A stretch of 64,000 nucleotides of DNA from Curvularia clavata (lineage: Eukaryota): NCBI GenBank assembly GCA_023920165.1, contig CP089274.1, positions 5,704,001-5,768,000 of the forward strand, given 5' to 3'. Positions 1-51,770 of the stretch are shown here, one piece after another. Below the pieces are notes generated by a model. It made no database searches and was not told the DNA's origin. It saw nothing but the letters and a program-made list of their open reading frames with translations. The translations under genes and the position numbers were made by a program. How positions within the stretch are numbered: position 1 is the stretch's first letter; the number at the start of each line of letters is the position of its first letter.

Positions 1-1707
1 CATCACCAACGAAACAATTACTGAGCATGGTCAGAGCGTTGGTTCCGTACAATCGCTTGGGATTGGTTGCGTCCTTTCTACCTGGTGACGTTTTGACCCT
101 TGCGTACTCTGACATCGTTAAAGTTGCCCCAAACCCTTAGCTGTGGCTGTATCATCGAGCATCTGGGAACCCATCTGCACATCGTATTCGGTACTCACTG
201 TTTGATGCTCAACCGAGGTTATCAAGATACTCGCGTCAAGTCAGGTATGTCTTGCACCATTCGCATTGCTCATACATATGCTTAGATACTCGCTTAGCCA
301 GAACGCGCCGGTTTAATCTAAGCAGCTGCATCTGCAGCGTGAATGCACCGAAATCGAATCATTTACCCTCGTAACGGCAAGGATGATTCATCTCAGTAGA
401 CGTACACTGCTTCAAACGCTGTGACACGGCGAATGTGTACTTTTCCCCGGATTCCCTCGCTATCCTGGGGTACGGGCCATCTGGCATTCCCCTGCATATC
501 ACGACGCAACTTACCAAAATGGAGTCTGTCCGGCCAGTCAAGCCAGGATCCACTTGAGGAGCTGAGGTCTAGACTTTGCTGGCACCTATCTACCTTTTTC
601 TTCTGGAATGACTGGGCATTGGGATCTGGAGCGCTCCCAAGCCTCGTTCAAATCTAAAGATTGGCCACCTTTCACAAGAATCAAGGAATCCGGCATATGA
701 CATGTTTACCAAGGCCATCTTGCATTACAAGCGGAAGAGCGATCCCTTTTCATGGCCCAATAGTAGATGAAAGGCAACACGCTCTCTTGTTATTCGTGAT
801 CTGCAGAGGCAACCCTGCATACCAGCTGCCTGATGCCGGATACACAGATTGAGGTGTGGATTGGGCAAATACCGAGCTGAAGTATTGGGAGCTAGTGCAC
901 CGATGCAATCGCGGAGCACCAGCAAGCGCCCACCCCGAGAGGTACACTCTGTTGTACAAATCAATCCACGGCGTTTCGCTAGGACTCAACAGTGCTGCAC
1001 CCATTCTTCCTGCTGATAAGGTTAATGAGTGCTTGATTCCACAACCACACTTCATGAGTTCTGTGAATCAGGGTAAAACACGGAGTTGCGAATGGGCCTG
1101 CATTGCAGAACAAGACTCTGAGAGAGGCAAGAGTCTAGAAGAATATCTTACGAGGCCCGGCGTGCTTACAACAATACATCACAAGCATAGATCGGAACCC
1201 ATTCAGCTCGCGAACTTTCACCCGCACGAGCCAATGGCCTCTTCCGGAACAGCGGATCACTTTCGTTGTGCGCCAAAGCGTTTTCGCGCCCAACAGGTGT
1301 ATCTGTCAAACTCTGGCTGAACAGGTCCCCGTCTGCGAGCGGCACTAGCCCAAACACGGGTGAACTACATACTTTACCCAGATTACAGACATCCCGTATC
1401 AACAGCCTCGAACATACCAATCACCTTACCTGCCCCACCGGGCTAAGTATACCCTGCGCCAAAACGAAGGATGCTGGAAGTTTGGTTCAAATGCTGTGCA
1501 TAGATTGCTTCCGATGTTACCATGCTGTGATCACTCGCCATCCGCTAGGGTCTAGCTGGCGTGTATATATATACCAAGTATACAACGCTGATTATATTCC
1601 TCTTTGCAAGCAGGCAATTATACCAGTACAGTTTTGGTCGTCACTATTTGATCTAGCCCAGAACCCCGCGAGAAACGATAGAGACAAGTAAGAAAGAGAC
1701 AGGAAAG

Positions 1708-2363
1708 ATGCAGTACCGACTGGTTTCTGTCCTTGCCGCAGGCGTGTTGGTCGCCACCACCAGCGCCGCACCCGTCCCGTCGTCCGAGGTAATTACCATC
1801 CTAACTTCGAAGCTTCGTTATCTCGCCTTCAATACTAACTCCAACAGACTATCAGCGCTCCAGCTGACACCATCTCGCTCGGCAACCCCACGTCAGTCGT
1901 CACCTGGGGTAAACGAACCGACGGCACCACCAACCCGGACGATATCCAGGTCACAGAACCCTCGAGCGAGATCATCTGGAGCCGCGACGACACTACCACC
2001 AACCCGGACGACATCCAAGTGACTCAGCCCGGCAGCGAAATCATCTGGGGCAAGAAAGCACGCACCGCTGACGTGTCATTTGAAAAGCCAAAGGACAGCT
2101 TCACCATTGGCAAGCCCAGCTCTGTCGTCACATGGGGCAAGCGCGACACAATTACTAACCCCGACACCATTGAGCTGGGCAACACAGACAGCGAGGTCAC
2201 GTGGGGAAAGCGCGATGGCGCAACGCCTCAGCCCGCAGATAGCATTGAGCTGGGTAACGCCAACTCGGTGGTTACTTGGGGTAAGAAGAGGAGGGGTGAG
2301 GCGAGTAAGCCGAAGGATAGCTTTAACCTTGGTAACGTGGAGACTGAGGTGACGTGGTCTTGA
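1708..2363 (+). CDS. Secreted Kex2-processed repeat protein (KEP) / peptide precursor, 198 aa; exons 1708-1788 and 1848-2363
   Basis: Signal peptide MQYRLVSVLAAGVLVATTSAAP. Intron 1789-1847 (GTAATT...CTAAC...CAG) joins two ORFs in frame. Seven repeats of consensus PxDxIxLGxxxSxVTW(G/S) are followed by KR/R/KK/KKRR. Confidence 0.85.
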
Positions 2364-2847
2364 AGGAAGGTGAGGGGTTGGAGTGTTGGTTGGTATGTGT
2401 GTAAGTGGTAGGGTGGGCAAGGGTACAGAGGAACATGGTGATGGGTATTTTCTAGCAAAAGAGAATGTATTTATTAGGTTATGCATTTTGTTGTTCTTGA
2501 ACACGACGATGAGTGATGCTTCATGTTTGTTGAGAGAAGTGTGTCTGTGCAACAAAAAACAAACTGCATCCTGGAAAACTTGAACACTCTCTTGTTGCCA
2601 AAATCTGTGTTGGCTCTCGATTCAGTTTACTCGTTGTGACTTTCGACTCGCATATGCGCGTGTCGTTGGTGGATAGCCCGACTTTTATTAAACTCCAAAC
2701 TCCAAACACAAATGCCCCCATCACCTATCCGTGCACCAAGGAGTATCAGCTAGTTCTTACACTATACCTCACGACCTCCACAGAACTTCAGCAATTTATT
2801 ATGCGTGACACAGCTCATTTTTGTAGAAATTATACCCCATCGCAGAA

Positions 2848-3927
2848 CTAGCCTTTACGGTACCAGTTCTCTTCGGGGTCTCCCAGACACTCGCCCATTG
2901 TGACTGCTTTGAGGCCCTTACTGTAGATGTAATCAAGCATATACTTGGTCAAGTCTTGAGCGGAGGTCTTATGGATATCATGGGCAATGGCTAGTCTCTT
3001 GCCTGAATCGATGCCCTTTTTGAATTTGTTCTTTGCAGTTTGGATCTTACTGGCTGCGAGGTTGTTGTAGTCTGAAAGATGTTAGATGTTGTACTCTGAG
3101 AACTGGGTCATTGAAGTTGTGGTTTCTTGTGTTCGGTGATTGAGGTAGCTTTCAAAGGAAACAAACATACCGTCGGTGTCAACGTCAAAATACGCAATAA
3201 CGTAACCCAGGTCCGCCATGACGCGCTCACACTGGCTGTCGCAGGAAGAATATGGTGGACGCATGTATGTGGGGAAACGACCAAGGATGTTTCGAATAGC
3301 CATTTCGTTCCTTACCATGTCGTCGTAAATCTCTGCTTTGGTGCTTTCGGAGAGATCTGGGTGGCTCCATGAATGCGATGCTACCTGATGGCCTTTATCG
3401 TACATCCTCTTCACGACACTGGCCCATTTCTTGTCTATGGCGCCCCTGCCGAGGTTGTTTCCGGTAACGAAGAAAGTGGCGCGGCCTCCCTTGGCTTCAA
3501 ACTGATTCATGATGCCTTCAGTGTATGTGTACGGTCCGTCGTCGTATGTGATGGCGACCATGCCGGGTTTCGTACAGGCGTAGACACCTGCGCCGCCGTA
3601 GGGTATCTTGCCAAGCTGGGGTCGGCGGATGTTTCGCGTGCTCTTGCCGGACGGGGTAGTGTTGGCATCGCATGCAGGTCCAAATCTGAATTGGCAGTCA
3701 GGTGCCTTGCAGTGATCCTTTGTAGTTCCACAGTATCCAGTTGACGAGCAGCATTCGTTCTTTCCGCAGACTTGATTGCCGTGATTGGGGCCGCAACGTT
3801 CGTTTGCCCCCCTGGAGCTTATGGTAGCAAAGGGATCGCGAGCTCGAAGTTGGCTTGGTGTGTCTGCTCCATAAGCGGCGGCGAGCGGAGCCAGCAGTGA
3901 GATGGCAATGACTTTTGAGAAATGCAT
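2848..3927 (-). CDS. Secreted chitin deacetylase (CE4 NodB domain) with N-terminal hevein-type CBM18; intron 3072-3170
   Basis: Signal peptide; CGxxxCCSxxGYCG chitin-binding motif; CE4 motifs TYDDGP, HSWSHP, RPPY. Exon 2 supplies IAHDIH and ends ...GECLGDPEENWYRKG*. Confidence 0.93.
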
Positions 3928-4728
3928 TTTCAGGGACCACGTAGTCAAACACGAGTTTCTGTTCTTTGTTCTTGTATGAGCCAGAACTGAAGTTAAGAAC
4001 GCGAAGGTGGAGACCAATATGCTTTTATAGAAAACTACAGAGGAGGCTAGAAGACAAACAACCAGGTTTTACGCTAGGAAACAACAGGGCAAAGCAATTG
4101 ATGAACTCAAAGAGAACATGGTCCAAGGCGCTTCTACCACTGAGGTTCATCAGTGCTGATCAAGGGGCGGACTCTGGTCCAACCACTCAGAGCGAAGTAC
4201 TCTTTAGATTGAAAGATCTGGGTTAGTTTTGATTTGTGGTGGTTGAAGCAAAAAAGTATGAAAGTAGATTGGGAATTGTTAATAATCTCGACTTGATTTC
4301 AGTGACGCATTCCTGGAGTTATCTTGAATCCTTTATGTATGAAGAAAAGAGGTGGTGGTGTTTTGTTGAGGGGACATGTCCAAGGCGTGAACCGCAGTTG
4401 GATGCCAAGGTGGCTGCTCGTGGGCATTGTCCATGTGATCGACTCGGGATGCTGGCCCCGGTTTGACGATCGATTTTCCCGTCACTGCTGTATGATGGTC
4501 TCGATTCTACAGTGAGCGGGAAGAGAAAAGTAAGAAAAAATGGGGGTTCTCCAGACGCACCCGGTAGGCTAGTGGTGGAATGTTATAGTCTAGATGTACA
4601 AGTGGAATCTAATGGTTTTCAGAGGAGCATATTGGAAGAGACACGTAGAAGCACTCTCAAGTAATTGTGTTGCTAATTCAAGTATACGATTAGTATCTGC
4701 TGCGCTACAGAGATTTGTAGCCGTCATG

Positions 4729-4750
4729 GTTATTGTTGTTGTTGTTGTTG
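4729..4750. repeat. Short imperfect (GTT)n microsatellite
   Basis: gttattgttgttgttgttgttg. Confidence 0.7.
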
Positions 4751-6073
4751 CGGTCTTTGTCGTTGTGAGAGGGATCGACTAGCACGCGCCGTTTGGCCGT
4801 GCTCGAGGACGTCATTGGCTCGGCGCCTCCCGCACGTGCATTACCCACTTGGGCATAGAGACAGTGAGAGACGGCTTACTCGACTACCTTCCATCTCACC
4901 CGGACTTGTATCTATTCATCTATTCATCTATCCAAGGACGTAAATCGCAGAAAGTGCTCATTCCGCAGCCATCCAGGCGCCGGCAAGGGGCTTGTCTGGA
5001 GAAATATTGATCAGGGGATACAAAGGCTATTTTGGGCCCAGAGCTGCATTGGCGTGCCAGAGCCGGGTGGGGCGCAGGGGCTGCGGGTGAGTGTTTGTGG
5101 CTGGTGAGGCCCCAAGTGGCCCTGGTTCGATAATTCTTGTTTTACCACGCCAGGCCCTTTGACTCGCTGAATCCGTGGAAACGTTTTACAGTGTGCTGGG
5201 AGCACAGGACGCACTGGCATCGGACCACTTGTTGCCGTCATGGGCGCTCTTCCTGGCCTCAGCTCCCCGTTATGAGGTCTACGTCTCAACCAGACAAGCT
5301 CATGTCCATAAACAAACATGCCCCCAGAATCAACAGGAGGCCTGGCCAGGGATGAAGACAAGAAGCATTTCTTCCAAGACCCGAGCGATGCGCTGAAACG
5401 CGCCCGTCGTCTAAATAAACCCACGCACCAGGCGTCGCCAAAAGAGGGCTAAGTCCGGGAACCCCTCATCTGATCCCATACGATTCGAATCAATACCGGC
5501 CCCCGGCAAGCCGCTACCATCCGGATACATACGAGTCGGGTCACAATGTGGCTAAGTGCAGGAGAAGGAGCAGAAGGGCGAGGAGCAAGACAGGGCGTTG
5601 CCTGCTGCATGTACAAGAAAGGGGTTTGAGATATCGTCACCTGCCCATGTCGCGCATCCTGTTCTCGTGGTTACACGGGTAGGCTAGGTAGTGGATTGAA
5701 TTGCCAACTGCGCCTCACCCGACTGCTGTGTTTGGCCAGCAAAAGCACAAACAGTAGCCGCGTCTGGACTGGTGTGGCGCTTGCGGGGGCTTGACGGCCA
5801 CGCTCCACCCCATCTACGCCTTCGTATAATATACCCTGGCACCCCAGCGTCACTGGTTACCTCGCGCATCCTTTGCGTCGTCAAGGGCTCCGTGTACCAA
5901 TATTTCCTGGATTGTCATTCTTCACTTCTTTCATTGACCTTGATTGAACAATCTTCTTGTATACCAATACTGGACTAATCATCACCCGTCTGTTCCGTTT
6001 CTACATACCCTATTTTTCTACTTTTACCTTTCTGTGCAAGAACACGCAGAAACAGTCCTCCTCTCTGTTCAAC

Positions 6074-7219
6074 ATGTCCCGCCTCCCACCGCTCGGAGCT
6101 CTGCTCCTCCCTCTAGCCACGCTGCTCATTCCCTCCGTTCACGCCACAAGCCCCTACACCAGCACCATGAGCGAAACACCAAAAGACAACAACGCAGACT
6201 GCGACTGCTATGTCGTCCAATCCGGATCCGAAGCCCCAGAGTACTTCCAATTCTACCGCTTCTATGACTTCCGCAGTCTCCCTAATCCCCTCGACACCTC
6301 ACCACCACCCATCAACGAGTCACAAAATGCCGGCCAACTACCCGTCTGGCAGCCCGACCTATTCAACAGTGATGCCTGGAACTTTGACTGGGGCATTCAA
6401 AACTGGAGCAAGCCCGCTACCGAGGACTTCCCTGTGCCCATGGCCAACTCGCCCGCAAACATCTATCTCGGCTCCCAAGACTCAGACACCTCGTACCTAG
6501 CCCTGCGCACCTCGCGCCTATCCTCGTACCAAAACGCCGGCGAAATCGAGAACCAGCAAAAGAACGTCATGCACGCCTCGCTCCGCATGTCCGGCCGCGT
6601 TCAAGGTGCATCAGGCGCCGTAGCCGGCTTCTTCACCTTCTTTGACGACACCAACGAATCCGACATTGAGATTCTGACCCAAGACCCCAAGGACAAGATC
6701 CGGTACACGAACCAGCCTGCCGTGGACAAAGGCGGCAACGAAATCGCCGCTGCATCGCTGGACCCGACCAACCTGCCCCACTGGGACGACTGGCAAACGC
6801 ACCGCATCGACTGGCTGCCCAAGAAAAGCTTCTGGTTCCTCAATGGCGACCAGGTGGCGCAGAACACGTACTCTGTGCCCCGCGAGCCCTCGTTCCTCGT
6901 GCTCAACATGTGGAGCGACGGGGGTGAGTGGAGCGGCAACATGACCCGTGGCGATGCAGCAGAGTTTCACATCCAGTGGATTGAAATGACGTTTAATACC
7001 TCTGGTCCGTATGAGGGGAAGAGCCAGGACAGAAATGACAAAGCCAAGGTCAAGAGGAAGGCGGACAAGGGGTGCAAGACGGTATGCAGGATTGACGGGG
7101 TCAAGCAGGTGGGATTTCCCGAGGTGGCGCACAAGGGTGGTGCTATTGCGAATGCAGGCGTTTCATGGGTGGTTGTGCTTGGAGTTGTGGGTGCTGTGTC
7201 CGTTCTTACGGGCATGTGA
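6074..7219 (+). CDS. GH16 family glycoside hydrolase/transglycosylase, secreted, probable GPI or C-terminal membrane anchor
   Basis: Signal peptide; ExDxE catalytic motif (NESDIEIL); WQTHRIDW and LNMWSDGGEWSG motifs; hydrophobic C-terminus. Confidence 0.88.
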   Translation: MSRLPPLGALLLPLATLLIPSVHATSPYTSTMSETPKDNNADCDCYVVQSGSEAPEYFQFYRFYDFRSLPNPLDTSPPPINESQNAGQLPVWQPDLFNSDAWNFDWGIQNWSKPATEDFPVPMANSPANIYLGSQDSDTSYLALRTSRLSSYQNAGEIENQQKNVMHASLRMSGRVQGASGAVAGFFTFFDDTNESDIEILTQDPKDKIRYTNQPAVDKGGNEIAAASLDPTNLPHWDDWQTHRIDWLPKKSFWFLNGDQVAQNTYSVPREPSFLVLNMWSDGGEWSGNMTRGDAAEFHIQWIEMTFNTSGPYEGKSQDRNDKAKVKRKADKGCKTVCRIDGVKQVGFPEVAHKGGAIANAGVSWVVVLGVVGAVSVLTGM

Positions 7220-7723
7220 ATAGCCCGATCAACAGAATGAAAAAAAAAAGAGAGAACGGCCGCTTACTGCATTGCATCTTTGAATCGATACCATGTAACT
7301 ATTAAGATACCCATGCCTCACTTCTTTGTTGAACACGAATAAAAAAAACATTTGCGTATCATTTGTCCAACCAACTCCCTTCCCCTCCCCCCTTACCCTG
7401 AAAATACAATCATCAATGTCGACTATCGTACAGTTACAAGGTCATGACCAACGTCACATTCGCAAGTCATTTCCTCATCCAACCAATTCTCTGCAGCTCC
7501 CCGGGGTATTCAACATCTCCTCCTTCTTCATTCGTCATTTCAGCTAAAACGAAAAGCAGGGAGCCGGAATGTAAGTAACAATATATACACACATTCTTTT
7601 TCTTGTCACTTTCACGCCCCCCTTGGTGTCCGGCTCATGTCACTTCGTTGTCATCGTCTATTGGTAGTTGCGATGCAGTCATTTTTCTTCTATAGGAATC
7701 CCACTTCTTGCTTTGACTTTTTT

Positions 7724-9155
7724 TTACAAAAAGTACTCGCCGCGGCCTCCACGGCCTGCGGGGACGGCACGCTTATGATCGGGGACGGCAGAAAAGATTT
7801 GGAACTCCGGTTTCAGGTCCTCGCCAAGGTTCATGATGGAGGCGACGTTGCCGCATCGATAGCAGTAGTTGGGTGCTGACCAGACGGTTACCACATCCTT
7901 GTCTTTGAAGTGGTATTTGTAGCCTTCGTTGACTAGTTGATGAGCCCGTGCAATCAGCTGTAGGCCATTGACATGGTTGAACTATATAGTGGTTAGCTTT
8001 GATTAGGCTGATAAGTCAGACAGACAAACATACCTCGGAAGAGACCTTGTCTCCAAACAACCATCCCGCGCCTCGAGGAGATACCGCCCATGTGTCGACG
8101 TCTTCGGGGTCACTCCACACGAGATCGCAAAAGGCACCCTCATGGGGAATTTCCTGGGCTCGGGCAACGACGCGGATCTGGTCCAATGTGCGGATCTCCG
8201 GGCTCAGTCCGCCGTGGACACAAAGAACCTTTCCGTCAACTATGGCGGCTAGGGCGAGGAAGTCGAAGACCTGACAGCAGGCCTTCCATACCGAGGCGTT
8301 GCCGTACTTGGTCTGGCACTCCTCATAGAAACCATAGACCTGGGTGATTTGTCTCGACTCGTGGTTCCCACGGACAAGTGTGACACGGTCTGGGAATCTG
8401 TACGTGGTCAGCACGCCCACGCTCGTATGCTGGGTGACAGGGCAGGCTTACTTTGCCTTGAGGCACATGAGAAGGGTGAAGGTTTCTAAGCTAAAGTAGC
8501 CGCGGTCCACAAAGTCACCGAGGAAAATAAAGTTCTGTTGGCCGTTTCCTCCGACCGTATTCTTGTTGGAGCCAGCATCTGATGCTGAGCCAAAGCTGCG
8601 CCTGTCGTTGACGCTCCGGGTGCGGCCCCGCTCTTCCTCGTCATCGTCATCACCCTCTTCGTCGCCGTCGCCACCTGGAGGGCTCGCAGGCCCCGTGTAG
8701 TTGGGGTCGCGCTGGAACCTCCGCTTCATTTTGCGCTTGACCTTTGGGTCTGTGATGCTTGTAGGGGGCTCGAGATCGGCAGGATTGATTGTGCTGGGTA
8801 TTGTGACTGGCTGTGTAAGGGGTGCGGTTGGGGTATCGCTGGGCATGCCGCCAGCGACACGGAAGAGCTCGAGCAGGTCGTAGAACTGGCCGTGGATGTC
8901 GCCGCACACGGTGACCGGGGTGCGTACGGGCTGGATGTTTGACTCTGGGGGAGCGTGTTAGCGCCGTGTTGCAAGAAGCGCGACGACAGCGTCTTCACCT
9001 TCCATCAAACACTCCTTGACAATCTCGCAGAGGCGCTTCATGTCGCCCTCGGGCAGGTACTTGCACTGCTTGGCCTGCTCGAGCCATTCGTCGGGCCCGG
9101 CGCCCTTTGCCAGGCGGGCAGGCCCTGGCTGGGGAACGTCATGATCTTTGCCCAT
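7724..9155 (-). CDS. PPG1: PP2A-related Ser/Thr phosphatase catalytic subunit (Ppg1/PP2Ac1 type), about 3 introns (8945-8998, about 8398-8451, about 7983-8034)
   Basis: PPP motifs GDIHG, GDFVDRG, RGNHE, HGGLSP, WSAPNY; C-terminal EYFL*; long insertion after GDIHG. Confidence 0.88.
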
Positions 9156-9787
9156 AGTCGTCGTCGTCGCTGTAGTTGTCGTGTGCGAGCGAAGGTGGGG
9201 GTGGGCGAGGGGGAGGGAGGAGGATGGGGGCCAGGCGGGAAAAACAAAAGTCCGGGGCCCGGTGACCGTAAGCGTAAGCGTAGGTGGGCGTATATGTAGG
9301 CGTGTATAGGCGGAGGAGAGAGGTGGTGGTGGTGGTTGTAGTGGGGCGATTACACACCTGGAGCGACCATGGGGGAAGGCGCAGGGCGGCTCTGATGCAA
9401 GGCCCTCGGCGCTTGCCGGCGCACCTCGTCCGCTCTTTCTTGCTGAAGACGCGCCCACTGCGCCCATCGCTCCTGCCGTTGCTGGTGTGCGTCATTGCCA
9501 TTTCCACCGTTGTTGTTTGTTATTGTCGCACTTGTTGTACAGCCATTGTCGCTGCCCACCACGCCTTCGCCCTCTCTCTCTCATCCACGCCCACAAACCC
9601 AATGTTCCCTCGTACCCAACACCCCTCTCCCCTCGACCACCTCGCTCTCTCACTGCGACTCTCGCCTTAAGCACTCCGCGTACGGTACTCGCCACGCGGC
9701 AAATACAGCCCGCCACTGAGCCACAGGACTGCCCTGCCCACGAGGCTGCTCCCCGCACATACAAGGCCGACAATTGCTGTGCCCGCC

Positions 9788-34895: not shown

Positions 34896-37800
34896 TTAGT
34901 AGGAATCTTTGCAATACATGGGAGGAATCTCGGCCAGCAGACTTTTTGCATACGCAGCTGCTGTGGCTGCCGCGTAGTTTTGCCAGCCCTTGTTCTTATG
35001 CGAGTCTGCATAGTCACAAATCCCGCGGATAACCATGCATGGATATTCTCCCATAACCCCAGCTGCTTCCATCTCGAAGCAAAGGACTTCGTGTTCTTGC
35101 TGCAACCTCTTTCGCTCCGCAACTGAGATCTGAAGTTGGTTGCTGGATGCAATAGTGCCAAAATGTACAAAAGGAGAGTCAGGCAATCGAAAAGCGGCTT
35201 TACCCCGTTTGGCGCGCGAGATAACTTTCTCTCTGTCACAACAGTCCTTGCAGTCGTCAGATCGAGTGCCTTGATGCTCGTATGTGTCTGCGAAGAGACT
35301 ATCATGTGCGGTCCCCGGATCGTCGTATTGGTTCTTGCGCCTCTCATCAAGCTTGAGACGCATTTGTTGCAAGACTTGGGTAATGTTCTGGAAACAACCT
35401 TTCGCACGGAAGCTGTTGATAGCAGCCATCAGGTTGTGATGAATACCGTTGGTATGCCCATGAAATTCGAGGCGCCCTGAATCTTTCCATGCGCCTTCGT
35501 CATACTGAATAACCCCTCCATGCTTGCGTCGTGGATAGCTGACAACCACGTCCCCCAGCACAATCTCGCCAGTTCCATAATGTGGTACACCACCGGCAAC
35601 ACCGACTACGAGAAAGTATTTGATATTAGGAAATCCAGCACTCATCTTGGCGGCAAGAATTGCAGTATTGCTAAGCCCCATTTTTGTTGGGACTCCGATG
35701 ACAACGTTATGCTTCCCAATTCGACCACCTAGATAATAAACATTGTCATATTGAACATCATCTTGGGGATACTCTTCGTCCATGACAAGTCTCGCAGCCT
35801 CTTTTTCCAGAGGAAGAGGAGATATCCACCCAATTGTAAACCGATGGTTCCTCATTTTGGGGTTTGTTGATTCATTTCGTTGTTGAGGTGGCAAGTCCTT
35901 CTTTGCAGTCTTACACGAGTCGGTTTCCGTCAAAACCGTTAGCTTTTCGCGGCTGAACTTGTTCTCCAGATCTCCCGCAGCTGACAAATACTCCCCTTGC
36001 GCATGGCCCTAAAGGTTGTCAAGACTCGTTTCCTCCTGAATACTAGACTACTTACTGTCATAGAAGTACTGGAAGAATGCTTTCTGTTGGATGTGGCTGA
36101 CGTATCGGAAACAGCTTCGAACTGGCTATCGATCGGCGCCGCGGATAACGAGACCAAGCTGGACCCTAACCCGCTGTCGGAGCAAGTCAGGTTGGCGCTT
36201 TGGTAGGAAGATGTTGACCGAGACCTTCTGAGACTACCAAGTCTCTCAAGATTCTGAGAACTATGACCAAAAATCACAGCACCACCAGGTGCAAGTAAAC
36301 CAGGGTGTTGAAGAGCCGTATCGTTGATCCCGAGTTTGCCCTTAGGAATAAGCAACTGAATTCGATCAGAATGCCCTTCTGCGTTCTCGCTTACACACAA
36401 ACATGATTCGAAAATATGATCAGGTTTGTGCCAGTAAATGTTGTCGACTAATCTTAAAAGACCGCCTTTGGTACTCCCTTCTCTTTGTTGAATTCTCATG
36501 ATATCAGAGACGCTGACAGCCAGATGATTTTCCCCTTTTGGGACTTTGTTCCAGATTGAGCACGCGGTCTGGTTATCGGTAGGCCTGATCAGTTCGCCAA
36601 AGCCGCTGCCAAACAGGTTCATGGCATGAATGGCTTTAGTAAAGTCAACCCAGCCTCTGCCTCTTGCGGGGAGCTCAGTGATGCGGGGCTTGATGCGTTC
36701 CTCAACCATTGCTATAGCGTTGAAGTCAAAACCTTCAAGCTGCTGAGGGGGTATATCACTCCCCTCTGCTTTATCTTGGTAGCTCGAAACTTGCTCCAAA
36801 ATATGCAAGATGTCTTCAACTCTGTCTTTGAGACACTCCGTTGATTCATACAACTTGATTCTTTTGTTAGTTTCATTCGTGAGAACCCAAATAGCAGCCG
36901 CTTTGCCGACTCTAGTTGCAGGTGCTTCTTCCAATTCATGTGGTTTGAAGAGGAGTTGGTCGGAGAAGTCGTCCTGCTGGCTAAACCTCAATGATGCTCG
37001 GACCAGATGTAATAATGAGCTTGCGCCATCAAACATCCAGGCTCGATCATCTTCGACGTCAAACAACAAAATAAACTTCCCAGCAATCCACATGAGTCGT
37101 TTGACGTATTGATCTCCCACATGACGGGTTGGTATGTCCTTGAGGCCAAGAGTGAAACTTCCGGAGCTAGCAATAGTGTTTTTGCTTCTTATGGTTTTCC
37201 TCAAGAGACGGTCACCGTCATACGGTGTCTCGAGCCCAGACCAACCAATGTCGTAATCAGCTTCCGCAGCCCCTAAAAAGTGTTTCTTTTAGCGAACATC
37301 ATACTCGTCATATTGGAGAGCGATTCTTACCCGCATAGCTTCTTGCAGACGCACACCAGCCAACGATATGACGAGATGTTTCGACGTCGAAAATACGGAT
37401 AATATCGTCTGAATCATTTCTAGCGATGCTTTGCGCTCGAGGATCTGCGTAAGATATATGACTTCCATCCTCATTGGCGAGCACATGCCATGTCACAACA
37501 TGTTCTTCATGCTTCGTGCACACCAGCATGGTACAGAATCCCTTGATGAACGGCTTGCCATCGAATATAGTAACGGTTCGTGCTTGGCATAAAGCCACCA
37601 TCAGAGAAATCGGGATCTCTAGGCCAGTGTTCTTCTGAGGCCTCCTCGGTATTGGATAGCCAGTGACAACAACCGGGTTCCTGAACAGGTGTCTCCAGCA
37701 TTGTCCAATCGCGTTGTCTGTCTGCTCTTTATCTTCGTCGAATATATATTCGATAGTAAACGAAACAAGAGAGTGTTTTGTTGTTCTGTAACCTGGGGGG

Positions 37801-40800
37801 GAATAGTCGTTTTCGAAGAAAGACGGTATGCAATAAGCGACCCCGGATTCAGATGGAGAGGAGCGAAGGGCCGCACCGAGCCATGCAAATTGTTCACCAA
37901 CTTCAGCAATTGAAACAGCTGTTCCGAAGGCTTCAACCAGGAATTGAGATCCTTGAATCCATGCGATGAGTTTAGTACCATTGGGTAGTTCACCTGTTGA
38001 GACACCATTAGAGTCACAATAATCGCAAAACCAGAAGAGGAATCTTACATTCATGTCGGTGCTCGGGACCACTACCGAGCACATTCTTCAACAGGAGGAT
38101 TATGTCTTTTCCAGTGTACGGCCAGGTCTGAGATAAATATTCAGCACAAGTCTGTGCTTGAACATTTTGAGCAGATCCAGTTAAGACGATGACTTTCTCA
38201 ACCACGTCTTGAGGCTTTCCTTGGTACAATTGCTCTGCAAAAAACTTTAAAGGATCCCAGAGTATCAAGAGACGTAAGGTATGAGCTTTCGCTGGAGTGT
38301 TTTCACTGATGATTTTGCATGCTGGGAGAAGCTCCAGAATGCTTTGTCTGATCGCCATTATGTGATTGAGCTCTGATGAAACCAGGACGAGCTCTCTTAG
38401 TAATCTTGTGACAAGATGTTCAAAGACCGGATTTCCAGCGACGATATCACTGCAAATCGGTACCGTAATCATGCGGTTGCTCTCTTCATCTTCTGTTGAC
38501 TCCTTATCCGAAATCGGGGTTGTAGTTGTGTTGAAAGCTGTATGAAAGTTGTCATGACCCGCCCGGCCCTTTAGAGATGTTTCATCACATCTCAAGTCAG
38601 CCTCCAGTTTTGCATCCTTTGATTCGTCCTTTTCCCTGTTCCAGCGGCTAATCTTTTCTTGAAATGACATAGTATCATCGATATTGTTCTGGCTTGGGCA
38701 GTGTCTTTCAGACCAAACGTTCATGAAATGTTCAGCAATACTTCTACAAGATGTAAGTCAGTACCTCGAACATGATAGAAACTCAGATCCCAAGTTTGAG
38801 AGTACCGACCTTCGATTTCTGTGGACAAACGCCATTGCGTCTCGATGTTCTTGACTCTCCGAAACATGCAGAAGTTCCAGAGCACAATTATGAAGTATTT
38901 CAGGAAACGCTTCATGGATTCTTGCCATATCGGAGGTATCGGCTCTCTCAGGAAATATTTGACCAAACAAATAGTCAGCTGTTTGAGAAACCTGGATGTT
39001 AATTTCGGCGATCCTTCTCGAGAGCAGTGGCATTATCCATGGTTCGTGTTTAGACGGAATTTGTCCGTTCTTGTACAGCATTTCAACATCGCCGTCGATC
39101 TTGCGTGTATCGACTAGCATCTGAATCACTGATCGATGTCCTTTCTTCACTGCCAGAGTTAACGATGTTTCTCCATTATGGTCCTTGGAGGTAACATCGA
39201 CTCGGCCAGTCTCAAGCAGCATCTTGACCACGGCCTCATGTCCTCCTTGTGCCGCGAACATTAATGGCGTTCGACCTGAACAATCCACTGTATTGACATC
39301 AGTGGCATCGTTCTTGAGCAGGAATGCGACTATGCCCTTGAACCCAAACTCCGCCGAATATGAAAGTACATCCCTATCTTGCAAGAATCGGAACTGGGGC
39401 CCAATCTCCGATTGTTTGAATTCCGCGGGGTAATCGTTGGCGTTGCCCTTGAGGATTGCTTTTAGGGCCTCTTCGTTTCCAGTAGCCATAGCAGCGAACA
39501 CGGGGCATCCGTAACGCTCCCTTACAATCTCCAGACCTGACGGAGATTTTGGGTATGCCCTGATAAGCTCTGGCATGTTGTATTCCACAAGCAAGTATAA
39601 AAGGCTCACGTTTTCGGAATACCTCCGTACCTCAGATCTTTCGAAAAGGTTGTGTAGCTTCACCCAATTTGTGAGTGGAAATGTTTCAAGGAATCGTCTT
39701 TGGGAGACACCACCTAATTCCGCTGCATTTGAATGGAAAAGCAAATTGCTGACCGAATATTCTAAGAACGGGGATTTTGCAGAAACGGCGTGAGTTTCAA
39801 TTTTTTCAAGACAGCACCGCTTCAGCCACTCATGACACTGACCCTTCTGGTCTTCTCTTTGATCAGGTCCAATAGATTTGAAAGAGAGATGGCCCATAAG
39901 GAATTGCCGCACCGATTCGTGGATGAATCGGACTTGTCGAAACCCATCGTTGGTGACATGAATCAATCCCTGGGATGTTTCGCTGATAAAATGCTCCCCC
40001 ATATCCATGTATGTGTCCTCTATGGCCCAGCTCGATACATGTCTCTCTTCACGGGTGGCGGAATACAACTCCCCAGGACTCAGTGGGCGCTTGGCGAAAA
40101 GCACTAGCTGAAAATAATGCTTCTCGCCTGGTCGGATTGGCAATAAATCTTGGAATAGTTTGTGCAGGTTAGCTGGAATCTCCAGTAATCTCTGCCAGAC
40201 AGATTCAATACCGCTTCGATCAAACTTCCTGTTTAGAACACGTATGACCAGAACAACCCATAGGAAGACTCTTGGCGAAATTTCTTGCAGTTTGGTTCTG
40301 ATCTGATCTGCTAGTTTGTTGCTTCCAATCTTTAAGTTATCGTTTATGTAATTCGAAATCGCGTGAGCGTGTCCTTGCTTGGCTTCTAGCAACATCTCGA
40401 GTTCATCTTTGATAGAGATCCGAGAGAGATTTCTGCTCGATAAGCAAACTTGGAAATTCGTGCCGCACGACCCAGCAACAGCGTGAATGTGCTCAAAGAA
40501 CTTGATCATATCTCTTGCCTGGTCTTTTGGACATTCGTCTACTGCGTCGATGAAACAAAGTATTGGGCCACATCTCCGTACAATTTGTTCTATCAGTAGT
40601 TCGAGAGCTTCAATTGTCCATTGGCTGTCTTGCTCGCCATTTGGCTTCGAGATGTTGAGCTTATCGAAAACGTCCTGGAGAGCGAGATTTCCTTCAAGCA
40701 GTTGCACTGATAGTGACCTGTATGCTCCAGTAATTGAGCTTTCAAGATCATTGGTCGGTGGCGTAAAGAAGAAAGAAATTGTTTTGATTCCCTTGGCCCA

Positions 40801-41865
40801 TTCTTGAGCGTGGCTGAGAACAAATTTCATGAGCGTAGATTTCCCCGCCCCTAGATTTCCCTTGATGTGTAGGATCCAGTATTTTTCATTTTCCGGCGTT
40901 GTGTCGAGCCACTTAACGTATTCAGGCGTGTGCAAGAGCCATTCGCACGTATGAGGGTGTGCATTTTTTACAATCCTTTTGCCTACATCCATGTCATCGA
41001 ATCGTAATGAGTCCATCCATTCCTGCTTTCGTTTATTGCTGAGGAATGAAGTGCAAAGTTCTGAGGATGATCCAAGTGGCATATTAGTCACTTCTGTCAT
41101 ATTCTGATCGAACTCTATACGGTAGTTTACCGCTTCTCTCCGTGCTTGCTGGCTCGAGTGGTTTCCCAATTCCCTGTACTGGTCTTGCTGGGAACGTGTG
41201 AGATGAATGTCTTCCGCCCATGTACCAGTTGAAGCAAGTTTCCAGGTGTCCATGAATGGTAAATGTTGTCCAAACTGTTTAGGCGTTTTCTGCGACGGAA
41301 TCATGTCACCAAAAGGGTTAGCATTCTCAAGTGCATCTCTCATCTCTTCGAGAGTTTGCGCCATGGATGTTTGGTTGCCAAGATACGTTCCCTCACAGGA
41401 AAAGAATTCGATTGATGCGAGTGCGAGCAGTTCTGGTCGGTTCAAAATATAGCCGAACCATTTGCTGTTTCTCAAGTCTGAATTCGATCTCGTTGAGCCT
41501 GAGTAATGTTGATCTGAAGGGTTGCGTGAAACGTCAGATAGGTATACGTAGCATTTCTCCGCATTCTGGTGCCAGCGGAACATCGATTCCATCGCATGTT
41601 GTAACTCCGTTCTGTTGGAAGTGTCTATACAGCAGGTATCTATCCAGCAAAATTCGAGGCGGTCTCTTGCGGCTTGTTCCATGCAAAAGCGAATCTTCTG
41701 ATAACCTGGCTTGTTTTTTCCCTTGCCGTCCATTGCATCTTGAAAAGTATACTCATTTTCCTTTACCTCCCATGAATGTGAAAGAATCGCATATCGTGGA
41801 ATGTCTTCTTCTTCGCGTTCGACAAGGCTGAATTCGTGATCATTGTTCCGTTGTAAGAATCGCAT
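34896..41865 (-). CDS. NLR-like fusion protein of about 2247 aa: HET - NACHT - ankyrin - uncharacterised domain - PNP_UDP; exons 41865-38810, 38743-38049, 37993-37331, 37272-36056, 36008-34896
   Basis: HET motifs YAILSHSW and WIDTCCID; Walker A GNLGAGKST and Walker B CFIDAVDEC; ankyrin GRTPLMFAAQGGH and GETSLTLAVKKGH; PNP motifs GVAGG, FEMEAAG, IRGICDYADSHKNK. Four 47-66 nt GT-AG introns each preserve the frame; the spliced length of 6744 nt is divisible by 3. Confidence 0.8.
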
Positions 41866-42319
41866 TGAGGGGGAATGCGCGTCTGAAACAGGAGGTTGAC
41901 TTAGAAAGCAATCAGCTAATATGCGCCGAGTATCTGGGAAACTGTGCTCTTCAGATAGTTTGTGGACAAGAGTTTGTATGTGCCAATTGACATCAGGCTG
42001 AATGTAGTAGATGAACAACGATGTAGTATCACGTGCATAAATCGCCTTGTGTCACACATAGCTTGATATTTAATTAGGCAACACTCTTGCATCTTCTTAC
42101 GCTATCTCCAAGGCGATTGAAATGACAACAGGGATTCCTGCAAGTAACCATGTGACTGTGTGGTATCACGTGACTAGTTCGGCTCAGGTATGCACTACTT
42201 CTGCTATCTCTGACGACGCCAAGACCATCCTTTTGCTTTTCTCTGTGCTCATTTAATAGACCGGTTTCGCCTCCTGCTTGCACACTGTAGCTGGAGAGTC
42301 CATGTTCAAGTCTCTCAAA

Positions 42320-43300
42320 ATGACTCGCGCAGTATGTCGCCGTCGCCTTCCATGTTCTTCACCGCACCGTTCGTTTACGAAGTACTGATACTTCCGCAGG
42401 CAGTTGGCCAAATGCGCTCCACAGCGTCCATGGCTTCAAACCTAACTCAAGCCCAATCCCTCTGCCGCAAAGCTCACGAAGCAGGCGCAAAAGCTCTCTT
42501 TCTGCCAGAAGTCAATCCGCCTACATCGCACTCATCTCCGGTCACATGACTAACCCACCTTCCTCCAGGCGGCAGACTACATCACCACCTCTGGAGGCCT
42601 CAAACTTTGCAAACCTGTCACAAGCTCTGAATTTGTGCTCGGCCTGCAAACATCAGCCAAGCAATACAACCTTGCCATTTCCGTCGGCATCCACGAGCCG
42701 ACAGCTGATGCGCAGAAAGTAAAAAACACGCTCATCTGGATCACGCCCGAGGGCGAAATCGCGCACCGCTACCAAAAGCTGCACCTATTCGATATGGACG
42801 TCAAGGACGGTCCGCAGATGAAGGAGTCGGACGGCGTCGAACGTGGTATTCATCTCGGGGATCCTTTTGATAGCCCTGTTGGCAGAATAGGCATGCAGAT
42901 ATGCTTTGACCTACGGTTCCCTGAACCCGGGCTTGCGTTGAGAAGACGGGGTGCTCAGGTGCTGTTGTATCCTGCGGCTTTTACCACGCCTACTGGTAAA
43001 GCGGGGCATTGGGAGATTTTACTACGTGCCCGGGCGATTGAAACGCAAAGTTATGTTATTGCTGCTGCGCAGGTGGGTATTCATGATGACGAAGGCAAGA
43101 GGCGGAGTTATGGACACAGCATGATTGTAGATCCGTGGGGACGAATTGTCGCTGAGCTTGGAGGCGACGAAGGCAAGGATGAAAAATGGGAAGGCGAAGG
43201 CGAGATTGCAGTCGCAGACTTGGATCTTGAGTACGTAGAAAATCTCAGAAAGGATGTTCCCATGACACGGAGAACCGACGTTTATGCGGATATTTCCTAG
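42320..43300 (+). CDS. Carbon-nitrogen hydrolase / nitrilase family (Nit1-type deaminated glutathione amidase); introns 42332-42399, 42511-42568
   Basis: E-K-C triad motifs LFLPE, YQKLHLFD, ICFDLRFPE; RARAIETQSYV; SYGHSMIVDPWG. Confidence 0.9.
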
Positions 43301-44227
43301 GTTAGTCTAGATAGAGTTTAAAATAAACATGTGAGTATTAGGAATTAGTAACAGGTTCGCATTTTTCTATTCTAGCCTGTTGTAGTAATTTGCACTCACT
43401 CTTTCTTTTTCTTTTCAATTGCGGCCGTAAATCTTCAAGTTCGATCCCTGCCACCTTGCTGCAGAAAGCGCTGCGGCACACTACGATTAGAGTGTTAGTA
43501 TAAACAACTTCGCTTCTTCACTTTCCCCTTCTCCCCCGCATGCTCACCTTTTCGACCCTCATATTCCGCCATCTTCTTTATAAATACATTGGTCTCCAAG
43601 TCACTGTAGACAGCTATGACTACTACTGTAGCCTAGCTGTAATAATGTCTACAGCAATCACATTGCGCCAACCATTGAATGTTCTGACTCCTCGATGCGT
43701 GAACCATGGTTAAGCTCGCGACAAACCACCAAATGAAATTTGCACAGTCAGCGCACACTGTCAAGAGGCTATTGCCTATACTCGCTGCCAGCGCATATTA
43801 CCGTGAGAGGCTCTCTCACATTTGGTGAAACCAGAAACCGGTTTACAAAATCACCCCCTCGATTGATACTTTTAAAAGCAGCTGTAGTTGCCGCAACTAC
43901 TTATAACTTAATATACTCTTAGAAAGTTTAACTCAACTTTCAGAAGTCACTGTAGTTGTCGCAGTCATTCTTGTGTTGACAGCCATCATGGTACCCAATA
44001 TCCATCACGGTCTTCACCAGGCCCTCATGTGACTCAGTATCTATGTGACACATGCTCTATCCACGGTTCAAAACACCCAAGAACATTCTTGAATTCTGCA
44101 CTGCCTCTTCTATCCGTATATAAACCACAGTTCCCCACCCAGCTAGTCCACACTACAGTTGATCTCTACTTCCACACGATTCACGTATACTACGAAACGA
44201 CACACTTTTCTCTCCGACGCTTTCACC

Positions 44228-45187
44228 ATGGCTACCATGTCCGATCCATCAACTTACTTCAAAGTCCTTGTCTCACCCCAAATACCTTCAGAACTGGTCC
44301 TGCACACCATCCAGTACCTTCCTTTCAACAAGGGCGCGCTCATATCCGCTCTCCGCAGTGCGCATCCAAGACTTCGCGCGCTCATCAGCACCTATGAGCA
44401 ATCACTTACAGGCCATTTCATGCTAAAGGAGCTTCGCCACGCTGCAACAGATTTTCCATGCAAGTGCGGTCGCAATTTTGACTGGCTCGCTGACTGCGTT
44501 CGGAGCTACGACGTCCTAGATGACATTCTGGACTCTCTTTGCTCCGAGTACAACTTCTGGGCTATTTCGCCACATAACGCCTCCCTCGCGAATGCGGGGC
44601 TCCTGCTCCTGTTTCGCATATCTTCGCTTGAAAAGCATAAAGACAAGCTTTCATATATCAGTTCTCTGCAAAGAGATCCCCTCATTGCTATTTATCTTGT
44701 CTTGCACCACGCAACGCTCTCAGCGCGATATAACGGCGAAGGATGGATCAGTCAGGACACATACGGGCAATTCATGGACGGAGATCAACTCGAGTTACGC
44801 AATGAGCTTGAATTCTGCTTTGCCGAAGCAGCGCTCAGTATTGGACCCAGTTTCATCTCAGATACCTTGCTGCACTATGATGGGCCGGAATCCGAGACAA
44901 CCCTCCTGAACTTTTATCATGAACATGGGACTCATGATTGGGAGTGGCCGCAGGAGCACGGAAAGGGAGAGTTTGAACCACCAAGGACCCAGGGGCCGCG
45001 AAGGAACGAGTCGGAAATGGAGAGAAGCTTGTTCACAGTGCTCCTTGAGCACCTGGCAGAACTTATGCAGTGCGAGTTGAGGGATGTGAGGGCACGAGTA
45101 GAGCAGGATCTTGAGAGTGCTCATCATCCTTTGGCGTATCTGAGCCTTGGTGGCAAGGAACGGCTGTTGGAGGGGAAGAATTTGTAG
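44228..45187 (+). CDS. Uncharacterised fungal protein with possible N-terminal F-box-like motif
   Basis: Uninterrupted ORF of about 319 aa from a good-context ATG; IPSELVLHTIQYLP resembles the F-box consensus (weak). Confidence 0.6.
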   Translation: MATMSDPSTYFKVLVSPQIPSELVLHTIQYLPFNKGALISALRSAHPRLRALISTYEQSLTGHFMLKELRHAATDFPCKCGRNFDWLADCVRSYDVLDDILDSLCSEYNFWAISPHNASLANAGLLLLFRISSLEKHKDKLSYISSLQRDPLIAIYLVLHHATLSARYNGEGWISQDTYGQFMDGDQLELRNELEFCFAEAALSIGPSFISDTLLHYDGPESETTLLNFYHEHGTHDWEWPQEHGKGEFEPPRTQGPRRNESEMERSLFTVLLEHLAELMQCELRDVRARVEQDLESAHHPLAYLSLGGKERLLEGKNL

Positions 45188-45295
45188 CTTGCTAAATTGT
45201 ATTATTAGAGAAAATCAATGAATTGCACTGTGACCCTGGGTATCGTGTAAACTCCGCAAATGAGATGCTGTATCTGCCACAAGATACCAATCCGA

Positions 45296-46065
45296 CTAAA
45301 CAAGATCTATACCCTCTCTCTCTGCCGCCTGTAGAATATAACTCCTCGTCTTGGCATCTGGCGCTAGCTCCAACGGCAGGTGGCCATCGTTGTCCTTCTT
45401 GTCGAACTCAGCACCTAGGGTCAAGAGTAGCATTGCTGCATCCCCGTGTCCCTCGCTTATGGCATGATGGAGTGCCGTCATGCCGTCCATATCTGTTGCG
45501 TTCAAAGGGCTCTTCGCATCTATCAACGCCTTCATCATAGGCACGCTACCCACTGCTGCTGCACGATGCAGTGGCAACTGTCCCCTTTTGTCTTTGACTC
45601 GCGCCGACGCTGGCGGCTTTTGTGCAAGTAGCGTACGAGCGATATCGAGGTTGATTTTTGAGGCGCAGAAATGCAGAGCCGTCTGGCCGTTGTTGTTCTT
45701 CGCATTCACGTCGGCATCCTTGGAGAGCAGCAAGTCTACAATTTGCTCGGAGTCTTTCCGCGAGCATGCCATCATCAGCGGGGTCCAGCCTGAGCCATCT
45801 GTGGCGTCGGGATCAAACGACTTTGCTTGTACAAGCGATTGTACGATCGGGAGGTGGTTGTAGGAAACGGCCCAGTGTATTGGGAGGCGATCGTCGGGGT
45901 CGCGGAGGTTCGCAAGCTTGGGGTTGGCGGCAAGCAGAGAGTCGACGCGGGATGCTGGCATGGGTTAGAAGAGGATCACTCAGGTGGGGGAGGATAGTAG
46001 TTTGACGGACCTTGGCCTTCTCGACAGGCCTCGTGAATAGCATACTTGGCCTTGTATTCTTCCAT
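45296..46065 (-). CDS. NAS6: Ankyrin-repeat 26S proteasome assembly chaperone (Nas6/gankyrin); intron 45955-46010
   Basis: About 6-7 ankyrin repeats (RLPIHWA, GWTPLMMA, GQTALHF, GQLPLHRAAAVG, GMTALHHAISEGH); size of about 237 aa. Confidence 0.82.
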
Positions 46066-46363
46066 GATAGCGGCTGTGGAAATACACTTTGATGGGAGCT
46101 GTCAAATGTCGCCTAGGTGCTGAAGCAACGCTACCAAAGATGGTTCCGCAATGACCGAGGCAGGAATACTGCCAGGCGGTGAGATACTGGAGCCAATAAG
46201 ACTGACTATTCTGTCTTAGCGTCACAGACATTTTAGGAAGAGCTTGGCAAATCTAGCTCGCTAACCTGTGGGGTACGTTAGTCAACTTTAAGTAGAAATG
46301 CAAAGACTACTCCCTGCTTATAAAAAGTGAGCTCTAGTTAATACTATGGGCTTTTGATCTAAA

Positions 46364-47846
46364 CTATTCCCTATGGAACCAAGCGTCCTGAACAACAGCT
46401 TCAGCCGGTGCCCTGGCGGAAGGCTCCATTCGTAACATACTTCTGATCAGCATGCCAACCTGCGCAATATCTTCCCGAGTCATATCCTCGCGCCTCTCCC
46501 CATCAAAATACATTTCCTCTAGCCATTCTTGAAGTGAACAAGCAGAATTGTTGCCAGACGATGTTCCTTTCATTGTATCCCAGTCTCTTTTCCAACGGTC
46601 TGGCAAGCCATCGTTAACTGTCTCAAGCATTTGGCTGACAAGGATTGCAGGTGTTGTCATGGAGCTGTCGAACAGCGGTTGTCCGACAATGAGCTCGAAT
46701 AACTAGACAAATTATCAGCCTGCTATCGATACATGCCAAGGCACTGTATTCAAGGAGCTGGACTAACTAGACAGGCCATACTCCAAAGATCTACGCGATA
46801 ATCGATTTTGTCATTAAAGATGATTTCGGGGGCGCGAACAGGAAGTGGAGTGTTGAGAGTGCTAGGGTATTCGTCGTTTAAGAAAGACTGACCAAAATCT
46901 ACGATCTTAATCGATCTGAATGACGACTTAATATCTAGAGGGTAGAAAGTAGATTTCACAAGGTATCGGGGAACACCAGGCCCTATTGGATGGCCGTCTT
47001 TTCTTTGAACAGTTCCTGTCTCGGGTTTTCCAAGTTTCTGGAGGAATTCCTCTTCTCGCAAGGCTTGCACCATAGGGATCTCGAATGCTAGATTGCGGGT
47101 ATGTAGATCTGAGAATGGTTGGCAAGGATCAAACGAATGCTGACATTATATTATACCTGCATGCGCAATTTTGTGCTCGTGAAGGAAGCACAAACCAAGC
47201 AGAGTCTGTTTTGCAATAGTTTTCGCAAGCGTTCCGGAAAGCCTTTCAGTACTGGGATGCGCGTCGAGTAGATCAGCGACGCTTGGCCCTAACAATTCCA
47301 ATACGAAGCATTTATGAGTTCCATTTGGACCACTAATCTGGAAAGGATCTTGCATTTTTATCAGGTGCTGGTAACCAGGCTGGTCTGAATCTTTCGCCGC
47401 TATTGTGCGCAAGACCGTAGTCTCTCGATTGTGATAGTTTGGCTCAGAAACTGCGATTTTTACAGCAACGTAGGTTTGATCTCTAGTAGTATGTCAGCTA
47501 TAATCGCGTCAATTTATTGCAGAAAGCAAGACCTGGTATCGCGCGCTGCCCAGACGGTTGAGTATCCACCCCAGCCCAACTTATGTAGAATCTTGTATCG
47601 ACCATTGCTCAAACAGTCCCCCAAATGAACGGGATGATATCCACCCCTGTGATAACGATGCAAAGGCTCAGCATCAATGTCACATATATGTGTAGACCAA
47701 TCCGTTGGCAGATCGAGCTGGGAAGGTTGTGCAAGCATAGAGGAAAGTGAACGCGCAGGGACGAGTACGGATAAAGACAATTTACATGACAGCGCTTTCT
47801 GGACTGATGTTCTGCAAGGTCGAGCGACTATCCTAGTCACGCTCAT
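46364..47846 (-). CDS. SRPK-like (CMGC) protein kinase of the expanded fungal family; introns 47483-47532, 47109-47156, 46703-46767
   Basis: YHRGGYHPVHLGD, LGWGGYSTVWAA, VAVKI, HADLHTRN, IVDFGQ, RAPE, VDLWSM; splicing restores one reading frame. Confidence 0.82.
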
Positions 47847-51391: not shown

Positions 51392-51770
51392 TAGATTGCT
51401 AGTACGTTTCTTATTTTAGTAGTATTATCAAGCTATTTATAAAGAAATTAATTAAAATATAAAACTAAATTGAGTGGACAAGACATTACCTATAGTTGAG
51501 TATTTCATCCTTATCCCTAAGCATGCGTATCGGCAAATGGCCTCTTTGATTCCTTGAATCATGAAAAATTAGCTATTGACGAACCAACCGTGTTTTATGA
51601 CATGGCCTTGTCAAGTAACTATCATTACATCTGACTAGTGAGATTGGCTTTTCTTGGATTCGTACCATTCTTTACCGCCTCCATTCCAAGGGTATGTTTT
51701 CAACAGCAGATATGTTGCTCCAAGCCAAGACTTTGATGTTGGTGGCGGGTGAACAGGCTCGAAAGGTCCT

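Follow-up and report, generated by a model that had tools for sequence, protein, structure and literature searches.

A short gene near the left end of the DNA analyzed here (64,000 nucleotides of Curvularia clavata contig CP089274.1, hereafter the window) appears to encode a secreted chain of seven related peptides set between basic residues. This raises the questions of whether the gene is real, whether the chain is cut, and what its pieces might be for. Kex2-processed repeat proteins (KEPs) are defined in PMC6339444 and PMC7329392 by an ER signal peptide and at least three repeats of 8–100 aa between KR, KK, RK or RR. By layout the gene encodes a protein of this class, with cleavage predicted at five dibasic sites and one single Arg between its seven repeats. 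The class is well populated, with 838 types already catalogued; most of these have a narrow range and change quickly, and few have a known function.

Gene Structure and Transcription

The gene model proposed in the first-pass annotation, with an intron at 1789–1847 and a 198-aa product, stands exactly as written (Table 1). Contigs from all four public runs used (four studies; 4 of the 24 runs listed, one being RNA on record and three RNA by guess) were missing 59 nt with GT..AG ends at this position, and the splice joint in these contigs rules out the unspliced 104-aa reading as well as the alternative GT..AG pairs. The peptide gene is a real, spliced and transcribed fungal gene. At the intron position of 15 related loci, GT was found at the same codon boundary in 11, and the other four continue without the intron, as in spliced sequence. 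Contig ends cannot define an RNA end for this gene, and the starts of two of the four contigs at 1610 and 1621 are a weak hint as to use of the TATA-like element.

Table 1. Features of the peptide gene (window coordinates) and its long-form paralogue.
Feature	Position	Strand	Remarks
TATA-like element	1564..1570	+	~140 nt 5' of the ATG; putative function
ATG start	1708	+	frame of the spliced 198-aa product
Exon 1	1708..1788	+	predicted signal peptide and start of first segment; N-terminus also in relatives
Predicted signal peptide, aa 1–20	1708–1767	+	putative cleavage point
Intron, 59 nt	1789..1847	+	GT..AG, TACTAAC branch site; absent from contigs, 4/4 runs
Exon 2	1848..2363	+	seven repeats; stop immediately 3' of final Trp-Ser
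Predicted peptide 1, 28 aa	1768..1910	+	intron inside; KR at 1911–1916, putative cleavage
Predicted peptide 2, 22 aa	1917..1982	+	NPDDIQ..EIIW subtype; single R (I-x-x-R) at 1983–1985
Predicted peptide 3, 22 aa	1986..2051	+	NPDDIQ..EIIW subtype; KKAR at 2052–2063
Predicted peptide 4, 25 aa	2064..2138	+	KPKDSF subtype; KR at 2139–2144
Predicted peptide 5, 21 aa	2145..2207	+	KR at 2208–2213
Predicted peptide 6, 23 aa	2214..2282	+	KKRR at 2283–2294
Predicted peptide 7, 22 aa	2295..2360	+	KPKDSF subtype; stop codon as end
Stop codon	2361–2363	+	
Probable 3' UTR	2364..2483	+	three contig ends at 2463, 2465, 2483; fourth at 2551
Long-form paralogue in this genome	G000:C8:1409121-1410231 (= L006:1387-2497)	-	found by sequence

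When exon 2 was used as a query against the genome, its own locus was the sole match, and a DNA pattern for WGKR was unusable as a locator (334 matches genome-wide against 246 for the control). The contigs of two runs carrying the spliced gene (X2 and X3) extend past 1400 by ~1,370 letters, which would take them to ~25–35, and over window 1–1700 (+) they may reflect either an extended 5' part of the transcript or read-through coming in on the side of a PPR-like gene. No Rfam match and no long frame was recognized in 1–1700 (+), and an Rfam search of window positions 1–8000 returned nothing.

The Precursor and Its Predicted Peptides

The seven repeats share a 14-residue core, D-x-I-x-L-G-x-P-S-[TS]-x-[VI]-T-W, with a basic residue after six of the seven, and shuffling the mature region 100,000 times never gave six W[GS][KR] junctions. 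The signal peptide was predicted by eye and from hydropathy (9-residue mean of 2.8 at the hydrophobic N-terminus), and this N-terminus is conserved in relatives. The peptides would have net charges of 0 to −5 and would end in Trp-Gly or Trp-Ser, which corrects the earlier description of them as Trp-terminated. Among the separators first proposed, the single R after repeat 2 was kept, and for the KK after repeat 3 the reading KKAR is preferable, so that the fourth peptide has 25 aa; the expected length of about 21–27 aa covers six of the predicted peptides, the first being longer at 28 aa. As had been remarked at the outset, the cores contain no Tyr, and none was found anywhere in the mature region. 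The peptides have no run of Ste13-type spacers, with one single XA/XP dipeptide among six. The single Arg after repeat 2 is the weakest cut site of the precursor; LxxR-type and single-Arg cuts are on record for Kex2-type processing in the systems described in PMC9769878 and PMC8528282.

At the DNA level the cores are 38–76% identical in all pairs, with the highest value between repeats 2 and 3. Tandem Repeats Finder reported no array inside the gene because the repeats are too diverged. No Pfam family reached the cut-off for the window protein or its relatives. The best PDB sequence match (E 0.17, to an Ig-domain G-x-P-x-x-x-V-x-W stretch) was taken as chance, and the top ESM Atlas matches (0.90 and 0.85, with low recognition) serve as leads only. 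AlphaFold gave no confident fold for the precursor (pLDDT 37), with low-confidence strands flanking the Pro, and a two-repeat model showed no secondary structure (pTM 0.15). A beta-hairpin register (3:14, 5:12) was rejected, there being no covariation support for it and no long-range covariation at all, and complex prediction for four copies of the two-repeat piece, made with the alignment unused, scored 0.01, which weighs neither for nor against assembly.

Short-Form Relatives

A protein search for relatives gave 19 matches among 582 candidates, a profile search 30 among 8,000, and the 50% library 26, at least three of these being unrelated repeats. Named short forms come from Alternaria, Bipolaris, Stemphylium, Parastagonospora, Ascochyta and Boeremia, with Patellaria more distant. 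A metagenome scan added 43 confirmed related loci out of 121 pattern matches. The statistics below concern 57 distinct precursors (67 examined) with 384 repeats, 281 distinct cores and 275 peptides; as the metagenome pattern demanded one W[GS]K[RE] and the loci are related, not independent, the site counts lean upward.

The core reads D62-T45-I64-E32-L67-G80-K49-P91-S58-T72-[EV]-V59-T71-W in percent of the 281 distinct cores, the Trp being fixed by the counting rule, and positions 3, 5, 12 and 14 are 89–100% hydrophobic with polar ones between. The Kex2-type layout read from the single sequence recurs in the homologs, where a basic site follows 319 of 327 internal repeats (a count that leans upward through pattern selection): KR or RR within 8 aa in 293, a single R in 19, KK or KxR in 7, and none in 8, of which three are spurious, their Trp lying in signal or intron sequence. 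An acidic residue stands behind the cut in 210/275 peptides. EA/DA spacer runs of Ste13 type follow KR in some relatives; two or more XA/XP dipeptides occur in 31/275 peptides, where shuffling gave 20.5 on average (7 of 1000 shuffles), and there is no enrichment for at least one such dipeptide (66 observed, 80 shuffled). The peptides of the family are acidic overall (median net charge −3), carry a central Pro in 91% of cases and contain 11 Tyr in 6,131 residues.

The last repeat ends at a stop codon no more than four residues from its Trp in 51 of the 57 precursors. W-G-K-R had been likened in the first reading to an amidation signal, which is unlikely because the Gly is not fixed (Gly after Trp in 255/327 internal repeats, with WG-stop in 4/57 last repeats against WS-stop in 24/57) and PAM is missing throughout fungi according to the review PMC6529398. 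Our own search with PF03712 gave no match in the genome, the control likewise being without a match.

The two or three subtypes distinguished at first sight proved to be ordered, since an NPDD..EIIW repeat came second and a KPKD[ST]F-like repeat third in all six Pleosporaceae proteins scored. The short-form cores are under purifying selection, with pN below pS in 8/8 locus pairs (42 codons each). The core, the genomic place and the order of subtypes are all conserved across several Pleosporales families. One short-form precursor with 17 repeats has at its end a small 8-Cys domain with no Pfam match (L034:1350-1547, +), and its repeats may serve as a pro-region for this domain.

A Longer Form and the C8 Paralogue

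Longer proteins with the same motif were also found (35 matches among 7,999 candidates) in Periconia, Byssothecium, Melanomma, Delitschia, Lophiotrema, Neocucurbitaria and others; compared as profiles, the long and short forms gave a match of 99.5%. Among the 158 motif copies of 23 long-form proteins, 63 lack a basic site behind them, usually those in the first two to five positions. These uncut copies retain the motif pattern and are embedded in a Pro/Ser/Thr-rich chain. Later copies are followed by KR and then by Gln in 53/93, and 22 of the 23 proteins have at least eight Cys in their last 200 residues.

The C. clavata genome holds one such gene, on C8 (Table 1), with a signal peptide, a predicted early intron and seven motif copies counted by eye. 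Its first three copies have no basic residue behind them, the chain is rich in Pro and Thr with a WNP tri-repeat, and there is no Cys tail. In a tree of 25 rows, resting on a poorly filled repeat alignment and used for the coarse short/long split alone, the C8 paralogue grouped with the Neocucurbitaria long form (100/97) and the window protein with the short forms (99/99). The core motif would be deployed both free, in the short form, and tethered, in the C8 long form. The C8 gene lies tail-to-tail with a DUF1989 gene, and the Pseudopithomyces long form is likewise beside a DUF1989 gene. The Pseudopithomyces record P0088 fuses the two, probably an annotation error because both genes are separate and opposed in the C. 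clavata genome.

Genomic Neighborhood

Beyond the window on the 5' side lie a PPR-like gene and an RTP1 gene. Among 19 related loci of at least 2 kb (some of them duplicates), 15 have the PPR-like gene beside the peptide gene, and three of the other four contain RTP1, a phosphatase or UPF3. The phosphatase gene, at window 7700–9200 (−), encodes a Ser/Thr protein phosphatase (Metallophos). Its first large exon carries a long acidic insertion, and the gene is conserved as the downstream neighbor in two related loci (L036 and L037). In four others (L014, L026, L027 and L030) the PPR-like or RTP1 neighbor is retained in inverted orientation or on the opposite side. Because these housekeeping neighbors are conserved across related loci, the peptide gene is placed by gene order inside a conserved housekeeping block and not in a biosynthetic cluster.

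Of 19 UstYa candidates in the genome, 17 were matches; the closest one on the same contig lies 2.75 Mb off. A Kex2-like gene is present as well. A UstYa profile built from the genome's own matches, which recovered 12/12 held-out loci in a control, was run against 5,874 frames taken from the 43 related loci, the window and the 20 kb to its left, and no frame reached E 1. The suggested inspection of the left flank for DUF3328 genes was thereby carried out and found none in those 20 kb, and the initial preference for linear products over UstYa-cyclized ones is strengthened. No tyrosinase was recognized by inspection among the listed open reading frames. Elsewhere in the genome, at G000:C2:293738-296930, two UstYa matches on opposite strands lie 2 kb apart in what is likely a dikaritin-type cluster.

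Comparison with Known Systems

The window protein shares with KEPs a predicted signal peptide, repeats separated by basic sites and the lack of a folded domain. What sets its family apart is the additional long form, in which some copies stay uncut and a Cys-rich tail is common. Dikaritin precursors (ustiloxin, phomopsin, asperipin-2a) likewise have a signal peptide and Kex2-flanked cores, but there is no UstYa/DUF3328 gene near the window gene or at the loci of its relatives, and its cores have neither Tyr nor an EDYxI motif. By the linked-gene test (DUF3328/UstYa within ~15 genes) the window protein is not a dikaritin precursor. The absence of Tyr is not decisive alone; victorin cores are not known to contain it.

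With alpha-pheromone precursors (MFalpha) the family shares the Kex2/Kex1 layout and, in some relatives, Ste13-type EA/DA spacers, but it has no MF_alpha Pfam match and its peptides are longer and unlike one another. Rep1 of Ustilago maydis is also a secreted precursor cut by Kex2 into related linear peptides, as described in PMC3133707; no sequence likeness was found between it and the present family, whose peptides are shorter, acidic and Pro-centered. KEP 490115 of Coprinopsis, with its -AADW peptides (PMC9769878), is similar in its linear peptides, a Trp at or next to the C-terminus, Ste13 spacers and an N-terminal Gln after KR (here in the long form), but in that account it has cores of 6–11 aa with other motifs that are absent here, and it belongs to another phylum.

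The expectation that the peptides would match no characterized family has been borne out so far. Besides the blank Pfam result, none of nine orthologue accessions (B. victoriae and B. maydis C5 excluded) occurs in the 7,878 KEP entries of Table S2 of Umemura 2020 (PMC7329392), a comparison made by accession, not sequence, although their strains are included there. The family fits no conserved motif that Le Marquer 2019 (PMC6339444) names in its main text. Table S2 of that study, an outside web page, may list the family, because 536 of the study's entries are absent from Umemura's table. Full-text literature searched by motif, tag or accession, and topic gave no paper on the family, most subscription journals being outside the coverage. 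This is apparently an uncatalogued family of a well-known class, spread across plant-associated Pleosporales, and the largest KEP catalogue would have missed a widespread family with divergent repeats.

Expression of the P. nodorum Orthologue

Three loci of P. nodorum, putatively its main effector genes, were used for comparison. In the data of PMC6828707, SNOG_06690, the P. nodorum orthologue, is a two-exon gene with wild-type normalized values of 8.86 in planta and 6.86 in broth (a comparison of means), and in the pf2 mutant the values are 8.83 and 8.21. A neighboring housekeeping gene was also up in planta, by 1.3 units. Counts per kb in planta in the same data were ~1,400 for SNOG_06690, 770 for the neighbor and 9,900–30,000 for the three comparison loci, placing SNOG_06690 7 to 22 times below these highly expressed secreted-protein genes (PMC6828707). 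On these figures, SNOG_06690 is moderately expressed and its in planta level is independent of PnPf2. With a named orthologue in a tractable model for which expression data are public, the role of linear KEP peptides becomes directly testable against defined masses.

Proposed Processing and Function

Secretion, processing by Kex2 and Kex1, and release of up to seven linear, unmodified peptides are very probable. The signal peptide would bring the precursor into the secretory path, Kex2 would cut after KR or RR and probably also at IxxR and KxR sites, and Kex1 would remove the trailing basic residues, leaving mostly acidic peptides of 21–28 aa to be secreted. The basis for such processing is given in PMC9769878 and PMC8528282, as far as those systems go. 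The best argument from sequence is the stop codon, which falls where Kex2 and Kex1 would end an internal repeat.

Given this processing, the chance that the peptides are carriers of an extracellular binding motif is, in our estimate, a little below even. Each peptide would present one conserved 14-residue motif (I-x-L and [VI]-x-W around G-x-P), which might dock outside the hypha on a fungal wall component or on a host or competitor protein, and the C8 paralogue, with several copies on an uncut Pro/Thr-rich stalk, would add tethered to free deployment. The motif could then act as a shield, decoy or wall-binding ligand at moderate abundance. Since long forms keep the motif without a free end, a binding motif fits better than a hormone message; the uncut copies could also be relics and not functional. 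Processed linear peptides with a binding motif acting free and tethered are offered tentatively as the best explanation overall. A fuller version is speculative and on balance unlikely. In it, a Pleosporales two-gene system would free the motif from a short precursor as ordered subtypes and present it from a long one whose mucin-like stalk stays uncut and often bears a Cys-rich tail, and both forms, the first soluble and the second anchored, would act on the same partner at the hypha–plant interface. If this is true, well-studied plant-associated fungi would possess a conserved pair of peptide ligand and scaffold that has been overlooked and is not described for KEPs in the literature cited here.

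The main rival, and a strong one even if we consider it rather less likely, is that the peptides are diffusible non-mating signals for a fungal receptor in the manner of alpha-factor. The alpha-factor-like processing layout with Ste13-type spacers in some relatives, the fixed C-terminal end, the one syntenic copy and the moderate, condition-dependent expression of the P. nodorum orthologue all agree with signaling. Trp-ended KEP peptides have been detected in mushrooms (PMC9769878), and language-model features rank alpha-factor precursors fourth (0.84), which is a lead only. Against this, the motif is retained in uncut copies that cannot have a free end, repeats inside one precursor differ widely, and the Pleosporales alpha-pheromone motif PYG[LM]P[IV]G occurs in 0/107 proteins collected and is absent from the window protein too.

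It is improbable that the peptides self-assemble into a surface coat like the Rep1 repellents, with the long form as anchor or nucleator. The alternation of hydrophobic and polar core positions, the low-confidence AlphaFold strands on either side of the Pro and the existence of free and tethered forms would suit a coat, but the peptides measure 21–28 aa against 34–53 aa in Rep1 (PMC3133707), and their net negative charge and central Pro speak against it. The in planta counts of SNOG_06690 given above (PMC6828707) are low for a bulk coat under the conditions sampled, which did not extend to aerial hyphae and spores. Secretion of the precursor largely uncut, as a multivalent O-glycosylated repeat protein, has a slightly smaller probability still. 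The 47 Ser/Thr among 198 aa, the motif copies without sites in long forms, the single Arg at one window site and the few relatives that miss a site behind one repeat are compatible with an uncut protein, for which the regular KR/RR sites, the acidic residues behind them and the occasional Ste13-type spacers would be needless. Least probable is a RiPP precursor whose cores are amidated at Trp-Gly or else cyclized by a UstYa-type oxidase encoded at an unlinked site. Although it would share the KEP layout of dikaritin precursors, the genome encodes UstYa matches and Gly commonly follows the Trp, the distance to the nearest match on the contig, the blank profile search, the housekeeping neighbors, the mostly Trp-Ser ends of last repeats and the reported lack of fungal PAM (PMC6529398) all oppose it.

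Other Features of the Window

Two further genes of the window lie beside the peptide gene. The first, at window 3082–3927 (−), encodes a secreted chitin deacetylase (PF01522) that also carries a chitin-binding domain (PF00187), and the second, at 6074–7219 (+), a GH16 glycoside hydrolase with a hydrophobic tail, probably of GPI type. A functional link between these genes and the peptide gene was considered and rejected, both being absent from 19/19 related loci of at least 2 kb. Further along, the region at 34900–53200 has a lower GC content and contains nucleoside-phosphorylase-like, HET-like and NACHT-plus-ankyrin-like frames recognized by eye, and it is probably an incompatibility/NLR region.
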